Shown: piece by piece, positions 53,165 to 62,400 of the stretch | Layout: the number at the start of each line of letters is the position of its first letter | How positions within the stretch are numbered: the first letter of the stretch is position 1 | NCBI RefSeq assembly: GCF_036588685.1 | Contig: NC_086373.1 | Location: 106,020,001-106,084,000, forward strand | Length of the DNA: 64,000 nucleotides | Direction: 5' to 3' | DNA from: Mytilus trossulus | Taxonomy: Eukaryota | The notes under the pieces: generated by a model | Seen by the model: the letters and a program-made list of their open reading frames with translations, nothing else | Database searches by the model: none | What the model was told of the DNA's origin: nothing | Translations under genes and position numbers: made by a program

Positions 53165-56100
53165 CTACATGAATTGACTACCAGTATCTCCTTCAACATA
53201 ATCTTGTAAACTCTCAAATGGATCTGTATGTGGAGTCCTGCAAGATAAATACTCATTTTCAAAATTCATATTATTTTGACACCTATGATAAATAAATTGC
53301 CATCCAACAATTTCAACAATCCTTCATTAACATATGTTATTAGCTCTGTGACAGCAACTACCTAAGACAGAAAATTAAAATAAATGACAGTTTTCTAGCC
53401 TTACTGAGATGGTTAGAAAACTCTTGTACAGAATGTTCGCACTTTTCTATAGGAAATTAGACTTTATCAGCATACCATTTGGGTTATCATAGTTAAAAGT
53501 TTAAAATCTATTAACTATCAAAAAGACAACCAGTTACCTTTATCTATCTGTTAGTACTATCAGGAGTACAAGATACTACAGTAAACTTTTAAGAGTTCAG
53601 TGGAATGAAACAGTAATAATATCATTTCTCAATTAGTAGAACAGAAAAATATGTATTCAACCTTTGGTTTGGTGTGACTGTCAAAACTGTTACATTGTAT
53701 CTTAATAATTTATAAAAGGTAATGAATGCTACATTGGTTAATATATACAAATTATCTAACCTGAAAAACTATTGTAATATTGTCTTCCTTGACAAAACCT
53801 GTACAGAGTGATATATATACACTTACCTGAGAAAGTTTTGTAACCTCCTTCTTCTTTGGTGTCGTCTGTACAAATATAATGATGTAACAGCCAAAATACA
53901 AAGGGCAACAACTCCAAACAAAACACCAAGAACTACATCTAATGTTGTCGCTGAGAACAACTGACTTTCTTTATATACAACCTCCGGTCCAGAGGATGTA
54001 GTACTGCCTTGTTGGATTTCTGATAAATAAAAATATGTCATTCTTATTCTGAGGATTTTCTATTAATATGTGTGCAGACTACATTCTGTATGTGCCTGTC
54101 TTAGTCAGGAACCAGCAATTCAGTAGTTGTTGTTTGTTGCTGTATTATATATTTGTTTTTCATTCATTATTTTGTACATAAATTATGCCCTTAGTTTTCT
54201 CGTTGGCAAATATACCACATCTTCTTTTTATATTCCAATAACTAAATGTGTGAGGCTTCCAAGAATGTGTCTTGCCTGTTATCTCATAATATAAACATAT
54301 TTACATCTAAAGGCATACCAAATATCAATTATGTCTGTGCAATTAGCACAATCTAGTTCAATGTAACAATCTCACAAGCTGCAATTAAAAAAGATCTTTT
54401 TAAATTTTAAATACAGTACATGTGCAGTGAAAAAAATATCTTCAAGGAAATATAAATAGCCTGTCTGATTAATAAGTATGGTTTTGTCTTTTCAAATGTG
54501 TAGCACAATATACATACATGTAATCATTACCTGTTTTGAATTGAAGTTTATTCGATGATAGAACATCACCGCATTCTACAAATACATTATAATTTGTGTC
54601 TGGTTGTAAATGTAGGATGGTAATATTTGTATGTCCTAAAAAATCTGTCTGATCTACACATTTTTGTTCTTTAGTCACTATTTGAACATAACAGAAACGG
54701 CATGGTAAGTTCAGTGGCTGGTTTGGCTCACCAGGCTTTTTTATCATCAAGGTCACTTGGTTGGTTTGTGTTTCTGTAACTGAGACAACCACTTCAGAGG
54801 CAAATTTGCCAGCTGCAATACATATATATGTCACTGAAAAAATAAAGATAATTTAATGTTAAAGCATGTACATGTATCATATTATTAATTAACTAAAAAA
54901 GTCATGATAGGAGATTTACAAATAATGATATCAGGTACTCATTATAATCAGAGCTACATGTACATGCAAAATATATAGCTGGTCATGATGATAGAGTGGA
55001 TCTGTAAAGTCCTTTTAAACAGATTTATGCAGATAGATGTCCCACAAATTGTTGTTTATTGGCTTATTGCAAAATACAGATTATAAAATTCTGATTTCAT
55101 CAAACATTTTTGGGCTTCCTTAACCATTGTTACTTCACAATAACTAAAACTTACATGATTGTTATTAATAATCAAGTTATTTCACCTTCAAAAGAAAATA
55201 TTCAGAATACAATGTATGTAAATATTTTGCCAAACTTTGAAGACAAAATTAATCGATTATTTATATCATTAAACAATCAATTACAAACACATTTTGGATA
55301 TATTTATTGAAATAGAGCACAATTGCAGCCCAAATTATTCTTGATAGGAGAAAATTAACACATAATCACTAATGGTGCTTGCTCTATGGTATATATCTAA
55401 GCCGAAAAGTCATGATTTCGTGAAATTTTGTCAATTTGCTGCATTAAACATGAAAAGAGCATATTTCAAAACCAATACTGTTATGTTTTATTTCAGTACA
55501 ACGACTTTACATTTAATTGTTCTAATTAGAGATACAATGTACCGGGTACTTGCAGTATAACAAACTTTTGATTGTTCAAGTATGTCATCATGACACAGAT
55601 TCACAAATAGCAAGGTCTATTTTGATTTGAGCGTCACTGATGAGTCTTATGTAGACGAAACGCGCGTCTGGCGTATAAAATTATAATCCTGGTACTTTTG
55701 ATAACTATACAGTCCTTATCACTTTTTGTCCGCCATTATGATTACTGGTCATCACACAGGTTCTCATAAAATTTTGACATCATAATACAAAATATCTGAC
55801 GCCACAATGGAAATGTGATTGTTGAATGGCATCAATAGTTTAAGCGGGACAGATTTTCAGGTCAGCGGGGAATAGCGACCAGGTGTATTGAAATATGGTT
55901 GTTCAACTTCAGTGTGAGCTAAGGCTCTGTGTTGAAGGCTGTACTTCGGCCTATAATGGTTTAATTTTCAAATTGTGACTTGAATGGAGAGTTGTCTCAT
56001 TGGCACTCAGACCATATCTTCTTAAATCTATAGTTTTATGTTCATTGAAAGTTCAAAGAGGAAGAAGAATTTTATAGTTCGAAAAATATCCATCATTATA

Positions 56101-56250
56101 TCTGTGAATCAATTATCTAAAAGTTAGAACTTTATTATATATTATATTGTTAAATGAAATAAATGCTTAGTCATATTTACTACATGTAAATAACTGATGA
56201 ATTTTCTAGATACCTATGAACTGAGTGACACAGAAATTTGAGAATTCCAT
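53165..56250 (-). CDS. Small single-pass membrane protein with one FN3-like domain, 4 exons, 194 aa
   Basis: Exons 56250-56214 (least certain), 54812-54531, 54019-53827 and 53237-53165; GT-AG, phases 1,1,2. The phase 1-1 exon carries ITILHLQPDTNYNVFV (FN3 LxPxTxY motif); TM VVLGVLFGVVALCILAVTSLYLY is followed by RRHQRRRR. Confidence 0.75.
55631..55674 (+). ncRNA. Minimal type-I hammerhead ribozyme within a ~90-bp retrozyme/Penelope-type repeat fragment
   Basis: Stem I gcgtca/tggcgt; core CTGATGA; stem II gtct-tatgt-agac; GAAA; stem III C-G closing a GCGC loop; GTC cleavage triplet at 55666-55668. Confidence 0.9.
55708..55888. mobile_element. Short MITE (tacacc...ggtgta family); inverted second copy at 57763-57925
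   Basis: ttgtccgccatt here versus aatggcggacaa at 57897-57908. The 57763 copy has TIRs tacaccttattgcta / tagcaataaggtgta. Confidence 0.6.
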
Positions 56251-56535
56251 GTTGTTACTTCGTTTGCAGGAATATTTCTATGGAGGTTTATGGTTCTTTT
56301 TAGACATGTTCAATTTAAATTTCACATTGCTGTTATGGTGATGATTTACTGTTGGTATGAATTGTTAGATGCAAGAGACAAGGATTTATGCAAAATTGCA
56401 ACAAACTGCTTTGTTTACTTCCGTTGAGCATACATTCGGAACTTCTCGTTACTGGTCGATTATTTATCTATGATAACTCAAAGTATGTCCCGAGTGTAAT
56501 ATTTTGATGAAATACTGAGAACCAAGTTGTGGTAA
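56251..56535. promoter_or_regulatory. Putative bidirectional promoter / 5' exons of the FN3-TM gene and PLGRKT
   Basis: ETS-like acttccg at 56417; + strand donor-like gtg|gtaatt at ~56531. The PLGRKT ATG exon begins with an acceptor (ttttgtag, ending 59405), implying an upstream non-coding exon. Confidence 0.4.
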
Positions 56536-56844
56536 TTGCAAGGTTATTTTCTGTATGTTGTCATGCTTATTTAGAATATTGCAAAGTTCAATTTCGGTGT
56601 ATCAGATAAAGCAAACCCTATGATATGCAATTACCTTATTGACAAAACAAGGATAATACCCTGCATATCCTGGTGTTATCTCTTGGCCCCAAAACCACTA
56701 AGATCCACCTTTTGACCTTTCACTTTGATCTATTTGTGAAGGCATCTATCTGTCTGAATCTGTATTTCCCACTTTTGAAATTAGGATGGGTAGGTCACAG
56801 ATTCATTTCGGCTATTGTGTGACCGGTTGGTCTGCGCACAATTA

Positions 56845-57390
56845 GTCACGCTTGCTGTAAAATCGCTGACTTTTACTTTTCAGGCTAAGCATATAACATT
56901 TTTTGGCGTTGAAGCGCATACCCCAGTCTTCGGCCCATTTTTCTAGTGATTTGAGATCCTCTTGTAGTTTGTTATGGTCATTTTGGTTTTTGATTTCCCG
57001 GTAAAGCAAACAGTCGTCTGCAAATAGTCGGACTGATGAGTTTACTGCCTCTGGGAGATCATTTATGCGACACAGGAAGAGGATGGGTCCTAGTACCGTT
57101 CCTTGGGGGACTCCGGATTCAACTGAAGCATTTCTTGAGTTTTCTCCATCAAGTTGGACTCGCATTTTTCTTTCCGTTAGGAATGAAGTTAGCCATTTGT
57201 GGATATTTCCTCTAATTCCATATTGGTTTATTGTGTGCAAGAGTCTATCATGAGGTACTGCGTCAAATGCTTTTGAAAAATCCAGAATCGCAATATCTTC
57301 TTGGTTTCCTTTATCGTAGGATTGGATCATATCATTGATTGTAATGGCAAGTTGGGTCTCACAGGAGTATCCAGATCTAAAGCCGTGATT
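56845..57390 (-). mobile_element. CR1/L2-group LINE RT fragment
   Basis: HGFRSGYSCETQL, DFSKAFD, GVPQGTVLGP and FADD motifs. Confidence 0.85.
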
Positions 57391-58429
57391 TTGTCTTGAG
57401 GTGGCGGTCCGATGTAGCAAGGGATATCCTTACTGATTGGATTGGTTATAGTTTATGTTTAATAGATATAGCAAGGGTAATCCTTACTGATCTTGTTTCC
57501 AACAGTTGATTAATGCATGTTTTGTTATTTTCATTAGCCAGACTTTAGCTAGAAGTGGTCCTGGGTGTATCCCGTCAGCGTATAGCCAAAAGCTGAATGT
57601 TTTTCTTGTAGTTGATGTCCTAGTTCTTTTGTTTTTGATTGTTATCTATTCTGTTCTCGCAGTATTCAAAGCTGAAAAACACCATAACTTCCTACTAACT
57701 GCATGTCATATTGATGCCTTACTTCTAACTGACTTTAATCATGCTAAATATGAGGGTGGTAATACACCTTATTGCTAATCCCGACTGACCTGGGGGTCTG
57801 AACTTTTGACGCATTCAACAATCACTTTTCCATCGTGGAGTCAGATATTTTGTTCCATGATGTCAAAATATTACGTGAACCTGTGCGATATCCAGTAATG
57901 GCGGACAAATAGCAATAAGGTGTATGCCCATTATGTATGTCAGGCATCAAACGGTAATTTTCGACTACCTTTAGCTTGACATGTTAAAATTTTACTGTGA
58001 TTCCTCAAAATATCCTTATTGTGATTCGTCAGATGTCTCAAATAATTATCCTTACAGTCAATTTTTGGGAAAAAATAGCGTGATTCATCAAATTCAGCTG
58101 ATTTTTTATCATCTGAAAGAAATTGTATATTTTATCGTCATGCACTAAAAATTACCGTTAACGTCATTTGGCAAAGTTTTTACTGCTATACGTCATGAAG
58201 GTACCCCCATTACTACCCTAAAAAAAGTGTTGCTATTTAACTTTTTAAAAGGGCAGCATACTATAATCACAACAAGTATTTATAAGGGTTCATAAAAGTA
58301 ACATGTATAATAAAATACATGCAAGTAAAGCATGTGGTATAAACTGCTAGTTGTCAGTAGGTGAATGTGGATGAAGGGATTTACCAAATTGAAAGTATGT
58401 AACATTGTTAAAAAAGATAATTGCATATA

Positions 58430-58945
58430 GAACGGAACATATTTTATTTCCAATTAAGGGTCCACAAGGGGCATACAGAGCATACATGAATAAGTAAAAG
58501 GAATATTGATTTGCATAGATACATAGATACAAACACTTTTTACATACAGTAACAATACAATTACTAACTCATATTCACTTTAAAAAATTTACCAACAGCC
58601 TTAAGGACCTGATTGTCTTAATAAATAAATTTATGCTGATTATCAAGTATAGAAAAATTGGAATTCTTTGGCAAACAAAGTCAAAGAGAGCATCTCTATC
58701 TGATTTAAAATCTTCAAAAATGGATTTCATCTTCAATACAGCCAGAGGAGCATTTTTTGCAAATTCTTTCATTTCGTGGAATATTTGAAAAACGTCCAAC
58801 TTCAATTTGAAGCTTATGAGCAGAAATACGTAATTTGCATATAGATCTTCTAAAATCAAAGTCCTTAATTAAAGAAAGATAATTTTCATAACCAAAATTT
58901 TGCTTTAATTTCACAAAATTAAACAGTTTTCCATCAGAAGCTTTA
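58430..58945 (-). mobile_element. LINE 3'-end fragment (RTE-X-like)
   Basis: LRISAHKLQIEVGR...RICKKC...EDEIHF; minus-strand aataaa and short tail near 58430-58448. Confidence 0.75.
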
Positions 58946-59419
58946 TTTTGGCTAGCATATCATATATGTAGCTGTCAGTATTTATTTTAGACATTTTTAT
59001 CAGCCTTATATTATGTTTTATAATTATTTAGACTCTTGTGTCTGAAAAAGATAGTTTATATTTTTTTTTTTATCATGTTGATACCAGAGTTTAATTAGAC
59101 AAGAACTTTAATACATGACTTATAAACTAATATAATACATCCATAATACCTAAACATTATAATCATGAACCTTGACCAATAAATGACAGTGTTCAGCATA
59201 AGATCCAGAACTTTTTGTAAGGAGGGGCCCACTGACTGACCTAAGGGTGGGCCGCTCAAGTCATGCTTCAGTGATTCCCTATATAATCAACCAAATTTTT
59301 CCCACAAAAAGAGGGGGGCAGCCCCCACACCCCACCCCCCTGGATCTGCCTAAAGTGATAAGTTTGCACAATTCAGATAACATTTTTATATTTGTATTTT
59401 TGTAGAATATTGTTTCAAT

Positions 59420-62400
59420 ATGGGATCTGTGATTGGAAAAGCAATGGATGACAATATGAAAAAGCAGCAAGAATTCATGTTGGAGACACAAAGATTAACG
59501 GTAATAAATTAAAAACCTAGACTCATGAATTATATTTGAATTCATTGAGCTTTGAGTTGGAAACATTAAGCTAGGCAAGCTTTTCTTGCGTGTTTCAAGT
59601 AACAAAAGCAAATAATTTTGAAACTGCAAACAACACAACTACACCATGCACACATGTATATTGGGTTTATTCTGTAACATCATGTTTATACAAAAATGCT
59701 AATTTAAACAATGTTCATTTGATTATTGATTTTCTTGTTGGGTGTCTTCAGTATGTTCTGTGGTCAACCAATATTGTTTTGACTTGACACAATACTCAAG
59801 GATACATACTTTAAGTACATGTTCATGTCCATGTAGTAGCAATATTAAGTGGGTCTCATTTAGGGGCTTCTGATCCCGGATCCCGTTACTGTTTTTTCAG
59901 ATTCCTATAACCCCGCTTTCTCTATGTATGCAATTCTCAATTTTTTATAATTTCTCGGGTCCACTGGACTTCATTACCCATTTTCACAGCATAATAATTC
60001 GACTTTCACGTGTCAAGCTTACAAAAAATCAGCAATCCTGTGTCACGCTTAGACCCCAATGAGACCAACTATTAAAGCAAACTTTGGTTTTGTGCTTGTT
60101 GAACCAATCCCAAAGTATTCTGAAGAAATTACTTACCACATTATTGAGGGCAAACACTTTTTGATAGACTATTGTGATACATGTACATGTATGTATTTTA
60201 AAATTCTAACTCATCTTGTGTTAAGCTGTTTCGTAACTGTGTACATTTTTTCCATGGGATAACTGATTTGTGAGTTATTGAGGGGATAACTCTGAAAAAA
60301 ATATTTTGTAGAGACTAACTTCAATCATAGGATGGAAACAATTTTTATAAGATATGTATACATGTAGATGAAGGTATAAAGAGTAGGTGGTCCTTCAATT
60401 TTGTATTCTTCAATTTAATATTACCCATTTTTCTCTATTCTTATTGACTGATTTTACTCTATTCTTAATTTTTTAGGCATTTATTCTGCACATTTTCTCC
60501 ATTATTTCCTTCTTTTTTTATACCCAGATGGGTGGATGTAGAGAGACAGACAGAGGGAAAACAGTATATCCCCTTTTTTTAAATCGGGATATAAATATGT
60601 ATAGTAAATAACATTCACCAAATCAGTCTTTTATCATATTTATAGCCATTTTCTTAATTTAAGATTCAGGGAAATAAATAAAAATAAGATTGCTAAGAGT
60701 GATCTTTTATTTTTTACCATCTAAAAGTACCTGTTGAATCATGGTGACTTACAGTTTGGTATAATATGATACAAAGTTCTGGTTTAATACTTCAGATGGA
60801 AAGACAAATACACATGCAGAACCAGATGAGAGAAAGAATGATGGCCATGCAGATAGCTGGAGCTAGGGATATGTTTTTGTGGTGTGCTTCTTTCTATGCA
60901 GTAGCAACACCTGCAATGATTGTTGGGTAAGTAATAAATATTTAGTATGTAAGCTTTATAAGCAACCAATTCGCTGTTCAAAATTTTAATGCATGCTGGG
61001 GGGAAATATTTCCAAAAGCGTACACTTAGACATTGTAATTGGTTTAAAACGTGATAAACAATAGAAATTCAACCAATGACATAACATTATTTTCCTTTTG
61101 ATATAAGAACAATGAGATTACTCATAGTTCTCTAGATTATGAACACCAAACAGGTGGATTCAGTAATATTATGCTGTGGTTTTCTGTAACGATTTTTTAG
61201 AAAGATACAAGTAAAGAAAGAGTATGGTGACCATATAGAGTACAGAAGCAGGCTATATAGTATTGCTGCTGTTTTTCACAAAAGACTATTTTCAAATTAC
61301 CAATCTTTTGACGCCTGCATATCTAATATTTAGACAGGTTACTTACTCTGTGGCAGGACATCTGGTGCTCTGTCAAGTAAGATCAATTGGGGGGAAAAGT
61401 TATTTGTTTTACGTTTTCTATACACGACTAAATCATCAGGCCATACTAATAAAATGTTCTTTTGGTGTAATTTTTTCAGACAAGTCAGTGTGAGGCCTAC
61501 TGTTGTTGTACATGTAAACATGGAAGTTGCTAAAACAGATAAACTTATTTTGCATTTTATTTGAGTTTTGATTAAAAACGAAATTTTGGGGTATTATATT
61601 AAAAGTTTAGTTGGTTTTGGATACATACATGTTTAGATGCTTTGGTATTTGATACACTTAAGTTTATATATCTTAGTTTAAGTGCACACATGCACATACA
61701 TGATATATTAGTGTAAATGAATATACTGGTAAAAGAAAGTAAAACTGATCATATAGGGGTGTCAATATAAGGAAAAACCAAATTAATTTATATATGCTGT
61801 CCTTCTTTAACTATAAGTAAGCTTATATTATTTTGAGTTTATAGCTCTCATATACTAAGTTTGTCTGTATCTGATAACTTAACACTTTTATATATGTTAG
61901 ATACATTTACTTTGTAAAGGCTCATAGTGTATATAACCTATGTGAGAACATTATGTGAACCAACATTCTTTTAAATTGATTATTTTTACAGAGCAGCAAA
62001 GATGCAGTCTAAAGCACCATTAGCTCCCATCTTGCCTTTGACCTTCCTTGTAGCTTATCAGTATGATATGGCATATTACTCAAAGATAGAAAGAATCAGA
62101 GGTAATATTATTATAGCGTTATTAACTGTCTGTTTCTGCATTGGCCCCGTTATAGATTCAGGGTTAAGAGGTAAGATTATTATAGTGTTATTAACTAGTT
62201 AGTTCTGTATTGGCCCCGTTATAGATTCAGAATTAGCTGTATAAGACCCGAGACTAAAAGAGTTTGTGGCCAATACAGCTAATTGAGAATCTATATTAGG
62301 GCCAAAATAGAAACAGACAATTCATAACACTTTTATTAAATGATTCTGATTTCAATCAAAATAAGAAAAGTACCTTGAAGAAGATACAGAAATTAATATC

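Follow-up and report, generated by a model that had tools for sequence, protein, structure and literature searches.

Why a hammerhead ribozyme with an intact catalytic core should stand alone in an intron of the mussel Mytilus trossulus is the question raised by a 64,000-nucleotide stretch of contig NC_086373.1 (positions 106,020,001 to 106,084,000 of the forward strand; hereafter the window, numbered from its first letter). The motif is of type I and occupies 55631..55674 on the plus strand. Helix I pairs 55631–55636 with 55669–55674 (6 bp, including two G-U), the catalytic core CUGAUGA lies at 55637–55643, helix II pairs 55644–55647 with 55653–55656 (4 bp, with a 5-nt loop), GAAA occupies 55657–55660, and helix III is formed by the self-complementary hexamer 55661..55666, in which C55661 pairs with G55666 round a GCGC loop. 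The cleavage triplet GUC ends at C55668, after which the cut is predicted. The first-pass annotation had described a hammerhead with a full catalytic core, and this was borne out: the core and all three helices were located in the letters, and the scan with the Rfam hammerhead models that it suggested placed RF00163 at 55631–55674 on the plus strand with 33.0 bits (E 5.1e-5), a score below the gathering score of 34 that the copies in genomic arrays also reach at 33. The core pattern matched once in the window and in none of 100 shuffles, and two other hammerhead families of this genome have no copy within the 64 kb. The architecture had also been called minimal, a term that does not fit, since a 6-bp helix I, a 4-bp helix II and a helix III of 1–2 bp with a palindromic loop are what the available text of PMC4209133 calls canonical for metazoan type I hammerheads. 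The minimal hammerheads described there share with the window motif the type I form, a weak helix III, and a palindromic centre, but they lack helix III and loop 3, whereas the window motif keeps both, as a C-G pair and a 4-nt loop.

The motif lies within a 5′-truncated retrozyme copy on the plus strand at 55617..55708, made up of 88 bp gained plus the 4-bp CTAT. The bounds of 55621..55707 given at first captured the right region but not its exact limits, which are those of the repeat-derived stretch 55617–55708. CTAT occurs at 55617–55620 and again at 55705–55708; the empty site has a single CTAT, and in the retrozyme unit it stands at both corresponding positions. The copy is identical to array units from three arrays at 91 of 92 bases. 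It is a solo fragment, with one match in the window and no tandem partner, as had been noticed, and the Naiad-type element that follows the hammerhead in full units is absent from it. From the predicted cut site to the fixed 3′ end of the family, the likely start of reverse transcription, is a stretch of 40 nt (55669..55708, plus strand).

The site is empty in two of three DNA runs from other animals (X1 and X2). In contigs of both runs 55616 is followed directly by 55705, so that 88 bases are missing, with a 4-base ambiguity as to the joint, and the depth across the joint is that of single-copy DNA (X1, 52.6 with flanks of 46–53; X2, 7.4 with flanks of 7–11); for the third run (X6), neither allele was among the matches listed. 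The simplest reading of the filled and empty alleles is a young, polymorphic insertion. The hammerhead would then be intact here because the copy is young, with one mismatch in 92 bases, and because of where copying starts.

The host intron, 54834..56213, is intron 1 of a minus-strand gene with an FN3-like region and a likely membrane segment (FN3-TM), whose fn3 domain match is weak and under the cut-off (E 0.016). Its exons at 56214–56421, 54531–54833, and 53826–54019 are joined in a spliced contig of run X10, presumed to be RNA. This spliced contig spans the intron and upholds the earlier statement that the hammerhead is antisense to it, and because it is antisense, the host pre-mRNA would escape cutting. 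The hammerhead lies within FN3-TM, about 0.75 kb from its 5′ end. Contig cover from X10 is nearly nil over 54935–55428, and contigs can show neither absence nor strand. On the plus strand, a PLGRKT-like gene has its first coding exon at 59420..59500 (from translation, with the ATG at 59420) and further exons at 60748–60927 and 62041–62163 that match PF10166 DUF2368, a family that we take to be PLGRKT. The start of this gene had been put about 0.7 kb from the hammerhead, which fails for the coding start, 3.75 kb away, but is plausible for a transcription start. A non-LTR reverse transcriptase fragment (56842–57429, minus strand; PF00078, E 1.9e-27) separates the PLGRKT-like first coding exon from the putative promoter. 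Contig depth also marks other very high-copy repeat pieces at about 54150–54250, 55750–56030, and 57800–59330, one of which adjoins the hammerhead on its 3′ side within the FN3-TM intron.

Copy number was taken from a pattern search of the 1.3-Gb genome, in which the hammerhead core gave 16,920 exact matches (control, 0), an expected density of 0.83 copies per 64-kb window. Many of these matches are spaced 354–355 bp apart in long tandem runs, so the check for copy number and tandem retrozyme arrays proposed by the first-pass annotation came out in favor of both; the 54-base 3′ part of the window copy alone has 3,205 exact matches. The family has the features of metazoan non-LTR retrozymes, namely tandem units in the 150–450-bp range with one type I hammerhead each, a noncoding unit (longest ATG-started frame, 34 codons), and a GC content of 0.39, under the 45–50% typical of them. 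Its hammerhead type, unit spacing, and copy number are as in mussel retrozymes, and the assignment of the motif to the mussel retrozyme and Penelope-like kind stands. In Mytilus galloprovincialis, according to the available text of PMC7229834, the retrozyme consists of tandem 350–390-bp repeats with a type I hammerhead, gives circular RNA, and is present as about 5,000 hammerheads in two similar families. The repeat described here is alike in type, unit length, and thousands of copies but numbers 16,920 core matches plus two further families, and the window copy is a solo 88-bp piece rather than a tandem unit. The likeness to the M. galloprovincialis families is one of unit size and general features. 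The annotation had further held that such hammerheads cleave mainly as dimers, which does not agree with the available texts of PMC7229834 and PMC7761336: a single repeat from mussel, once cloned, cleaved at a rate near 0.1 per min, and only for amphibians is a dimer said to be needed.

A search for variants of the structured element treated below (449 matches, 30 loci read) brought up two more hammerhead repeat families, both with units of about 350 bp: family 3 (L321, L340, and L343–L354), with 3,816 exact matches, and family 4 (L325 and L355–L366), with 1,212 and an irregular helix II. Across families, five of the 12 pairs of the hammerhead helices are changed on both sides, and the helix III hexamer is palindromic in all three distinct hammerhead types aligned, with closing pairs CG, AU, and UA. 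This covariation makes the families, though not the window copy, look selected for cutting. Several diverged or composite loci were also met with. Close to a contig start (L030:2140-2631; G000:C1 near 162.5 kb), a truncated retrozyme is bordered at its 5′ end by telomere-like TTAGGG repeats. Three degenerate hammerhead-like units, 72–74% like the retrozyme and about 780 bp apart, lie inverted upstream of a Naiad ORF (L157:4218-5854). A 29-bp match to the last retrozyme bases before the 3′ end occurs near 550–578 of L129, L130, and L134, within another repeat that lies upstream of some Naiad copies.

All four hammerhead repeat families carry, 3′ of the hammerhead, an element that also opens the Naiad of this genome. 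In the retrozyme unit this is a Naiad-like element of 75 nt, about 45–110 nt 3′ of the cut. The retrozyme stretch from +23 to +95, counted from that cut, matches the one just 5′ of the Naiad ATG with a score of 45.8, a value reached by none of 200 shuffles. Three Penelope-like element (PLE) families with a C-terminal endonuclease were compared with the unit as candidate partners and were set aside, with no clear similarity and no motif: 48, 34, and 7 of 200 shuffles scored as high, the best being the 784-aa family (7/200). The element appears to fold into two helices, in which all 84 cells are paired across seven natural copies (84/84; slid controls, 25–55%), and its fold z-scores range from −1.4 to −3.5; L324, which has the element without the 5′ core, was excluded from the alignments. 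Three of the 12 pairs are changed on both sides, all from one contrast, that between Naiad and the retrozymes, and a count of three pairs was reached by 50 of 500 shuffles, whereas the covariation score was reached by none of 500. Of 12 matches to the motif core in the PMC8557442 supplement, 11 are consensus entries that have it close to their start. To judge by their names, the entries come from oysters, mussels, hemichordates, and others, and on visual inspection the two sides of the outer helix change together across them. Searched against Rfam, the shared element had no counterpart with an E of 1 or less; a hit to NEAT1_2 lay far under the cut-off and was dismissed as chance-like. A metagenome scan for the element yielded 120 loci, of which the one with a GC content under 0.46 was used, the others being set aside as probable chance matches; this record (L268, GC 0.33), probably animal DNA, holds a diverged retrozyme-like unit with the shared element and a degenerate hammerhead.

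The autonomous element in question, P0001, has a 1,056-codon frame with an N-terminal GIY-YIG domain and the marks CxC, DKA, and YIDD. By the marks set out in PMC8557442, its sequence places it in the Naiad clade of PLEs: it joins GIY-YIG and reverse transcriptase in one ORF, shows no hammerhead core at the two tandem junctions inspected, and on visual comparison is similar to Naiad_Mgal from that paper's supplement. The retrozyme, with a hammerhead and no ORF, is not itself a Naiad. A GIY-YIG search of the genome gave at least 149 matches (150 of 615 candidates scored), and the four element families compared with the retrozyme unit come from among these. With the P0001 protein as query there were at least 45 matches at 91–100% identity, many without stops (44 of 49,614 candidates scored); the matches listed all belong to P0001's own family, with no closer Naiad family among them. 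The Naiad of this genome has an extra 21–24-nt hairpin within the element that the retrozymes do not have, and the working partner may therefore be another, sister Naiad family. About 100 nt before the 3′ end of one Naiad copy (L151:7148-7262; G000:C10), where the retrozyme has its hammerhead, lies a twister-like motif with a weak Rfam match to twister-P1 (18.5 bits, E 0.24) and a fold z-score of −3.9.

To the shared element is added a shared end. The retrozyme copies examined have fixed 3′ ends and variable 5′ ends, with lengths of 75–5,358 bp, and they form partial tandems, the pattern expected of a nonautonomous Naiad partner; the terminal cis sequence and the end position are common to the retrozyme and the autonomous Naiad. 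Each end was counted once if it lay no more than 95 nt from the cut site; the ends come mostly from one chromosome, and many family-1 loci were picked by a pattern reaching +39. In family 1, 60 of 67 distinct ends fall 5–13 nt before a GTCGAT core (the core standing at +53), and in a subset chosen without 3′ bias 14 of 16 ends lie at +40 to +47. From cut site to GTCGAT core, families 1 to 4 measure 52, 58, 44, and 50 nt; the median end lies 42, 48, 34, and 41 nt after the cut site (n = 67, 7, 16, and 13) and 10, 10, 10, and 9 nt before the core. Family 4 is looser, with eight of 13 ends within 5–13 nt of the core. The distance to the core is thus constant while that to the cut site varies, and the ends therefore follow the element, not the ribozyme. 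Naiad itself ends 10–12 nt before the GTCGAT core at 18 of 30 loci and within 3–12 nt at 27 of 30, and over retrozymes and Naiad together the median end falls 9–11 nt short of the element. The flanks of retrozyme and Naiad copies are AT-rich and mostly not microsatellites, and the ends showed no second peak; automated calls of target duplications on the copies gave short AT-rich matches only, which we deemed untrustworthy.

A common element and a common end position argue that Naiad reverse transcriptase likely mobilizes retrozymes from an internal start, and on this sequence evidence we consider Naiad a probable mobilizing partner. In the scheme that we propose, the Naiad protein would bind the folded element on retrozyme RNA, nick AT-rich DNA, and prime cDNA about 10 nt 5′ of the element. 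Copying would cover the 40 nt up to the cut site and then enter the 5′ part of the hammerhead. A self-cleaved linear monomer begins at +1, and copying back through the hammerhead would therefore need circular or uncleaved RNA. At the present locus, copying would have stopped after 88 nt, the end being joined through the 4-base CTAT match, a match that may be due to chance in AT-rich DNA because the available text of PMC11167929 reports no primer-template homology in the system studied there. Early stops would give solo hammerheads, and long runs would give arrays. As the hammerhead would be the first module copied, even the shortest insertions would keep it whole without selection.

Our preferred reading of the locus, which we hold with fair confidence, is thus a young 88-base, 5′-truncated retrozyme copy, likely written into the intron by a Naiad reverse transcriptase and likely without a role here. 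That the window copy is a passenger with no function at this locus is the firmest part of this reading and very likely correct: without the element, and on the untranscribed strand of the intron, it is likely inert, with no cut in host RNA and no further move. The first-pass annotation had raised the idea of local regulation, in which the copy would cut plus-strand upstream or antisense transcripts near a shared promoter, alone or paired through its palindrome with retrozyme RNA. The core is indeed intact, the 5′ end of FN3-TM is some 0.75 kb off, helix I forms with a computed probability of about 0.8 in the isolated 92-nt piece, and the two-strand fold through the GCGC palindrome is stable (−29.5 kcal/mol). 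Cleavage in trans by that route is physically possible on these fold computations, but equally so for every copy in the genome. At its lowest energy the 87-nt feature takes up a structure other than the hammerhead, with a stability that does not exceed that of shuffles (z +1.21), a result that is uninformative because array copies behave alike. Against a local role, helix I has a probability of 0.0 in 200–350 nt of local context, which weighs little because the array context is equally low. What does weigh is that about one copy per window (0.83) is expected from the density of 16,920 matches alone and that the site is empty in two of the three other DNA sets; a meaning specific to this locus is not supported and is very unlikely. 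It would take a similarly improbable course of events for the filled allele to be ancestral and for the empty alleles to be products of a deletion that ran from one CTAT to the other. In its favor, the ambiguity at the joint comes to precisely these four bases; the deletion would, however, have had to take out just the repeat-derived bases, at a place where the right junction lies within the insertion-end peak of the family, and the empty form occurs in two differently coded organisms, while near-identity to the arrays argues for youth.

A more serious alternative, though still an unlikely one, grants that the copy is a passenger but has it moved by a non-Naiad PLE (Neptune, Poseidon, or Hydra) or by DNA-level recombination, the Naiad likeness reflecting ancestry only. 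Canonical hammerheads belong to elements of other clades and, by the available text of PMC8557442, are absent from Naiads, vertebrate retrozymes relate to such pLTRs (bioRxiv 10.64898/2026.07.22.740005, available text), and elements with long ORFs and a C-terminal endonuclease are present in the M. trossulus genome. The three families of that kind compared here, however, yielded neither clear similarity to the unit nor the motif, and the ends of four diverged families track the Naiad element, which neither ancestry alone nor recombination would maintain. Mobilization by Naiad remains the reading that we prefer.

A PLE link of retrozymes is not new as such. In the parts available to us, PMC7229834 names "PLEs" merely as candidate mobilizers of mussel retrozymes, PMC7761336 likewise proposes a PLE link, and a preprint (Li, Clavereau, Pollet 2026; bioRxiv 10.64898/2026.07.22.740005) treats vertebrate retrozymes as nonautonomous PLE derivatives. 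The preprint is close to the present findings in reporting terminal homology between retrozyme and PLE and dispersed monomers beside arrays, and it gives about 43% of Xenopus retrozyme copies as intronic. It differs in being centered on vertebrates: in the available text the homology is in Xenopus, Naiad figures in coral only, and end mapping, a cis element, and mussels are absent. The Naiad clade was described in PMC8557442 as autonomous elements that combine GIY-YIG with reverse transcriptase, without canonical hammerheads, with a (TA)n preference and an optional 30–40-bp tail; the available text mentions retrozymes once, without a Naiad link, and gives no account of the element common to the two. 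Naiad shares with the retrozyme 5′-truncated copies, partial tandems, and a fixed 3′ end directly before the common element, and it differs in having an ORF and no hammerhead; the retrozyme lacks an ORF and bears its hammerhead some 40 nt short of its end. The anole Poseidon element PAc, for which internal initiation was observed in vitro (Frangieh et al. 2024; PMC11167929, available text), offers a parallel for the proposed start: its reverse transcription begins internally, on the 3′ side of the hammerhead cut, with the binding region further 3′ and genomic ends that match the starts, and its start site is not homologous to the target. PAc belongs to another clade, however, has its own ORF and hammerhead, and uses two start sites, compared with one peak here. 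PMC10294476 mentions neither Naiad, ribozyme, nor retrozyme. A Naiad–retrozyme link was not found in the openly readable literature. What is new and testable here is that link at the family level; mussel retrozymes were known, and the PLE link had been proposed and was supported for Xenopus.

The locus itself is ordinary, and intact solo hammerheads in mussel introns are best taken as a by-product of copying, not to be read as regulation. For the family, the sequence comparisons make it likely that mussel retrozymes are nonautonomous parasites of Naiad-clade PLEs, in which a covarying RNA element, found at the start of Naiads from bivalves to hemichordates, would set the start of copying about 10 nt upstream, and circular RNA would give rise both to arrays and to solo hammerheads. 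The available texts of PMC7229834 and the 2026 preprint leave open by which autonomous element, and through what signal, the retrozymes of animals are moved. The present findings put forward a particular enzyme, that of Naiad, of which this genome has many long ORFs of nearly identical sequence, together with an RNA element of 75 nt and a predicted site of initiation. If this is true, the mobilizing enzyme and the RNA signal would have been named for a metazoan retrozyme, and hammerhead circles would ride on a Penelope clade that is reported to lack hammerheads.
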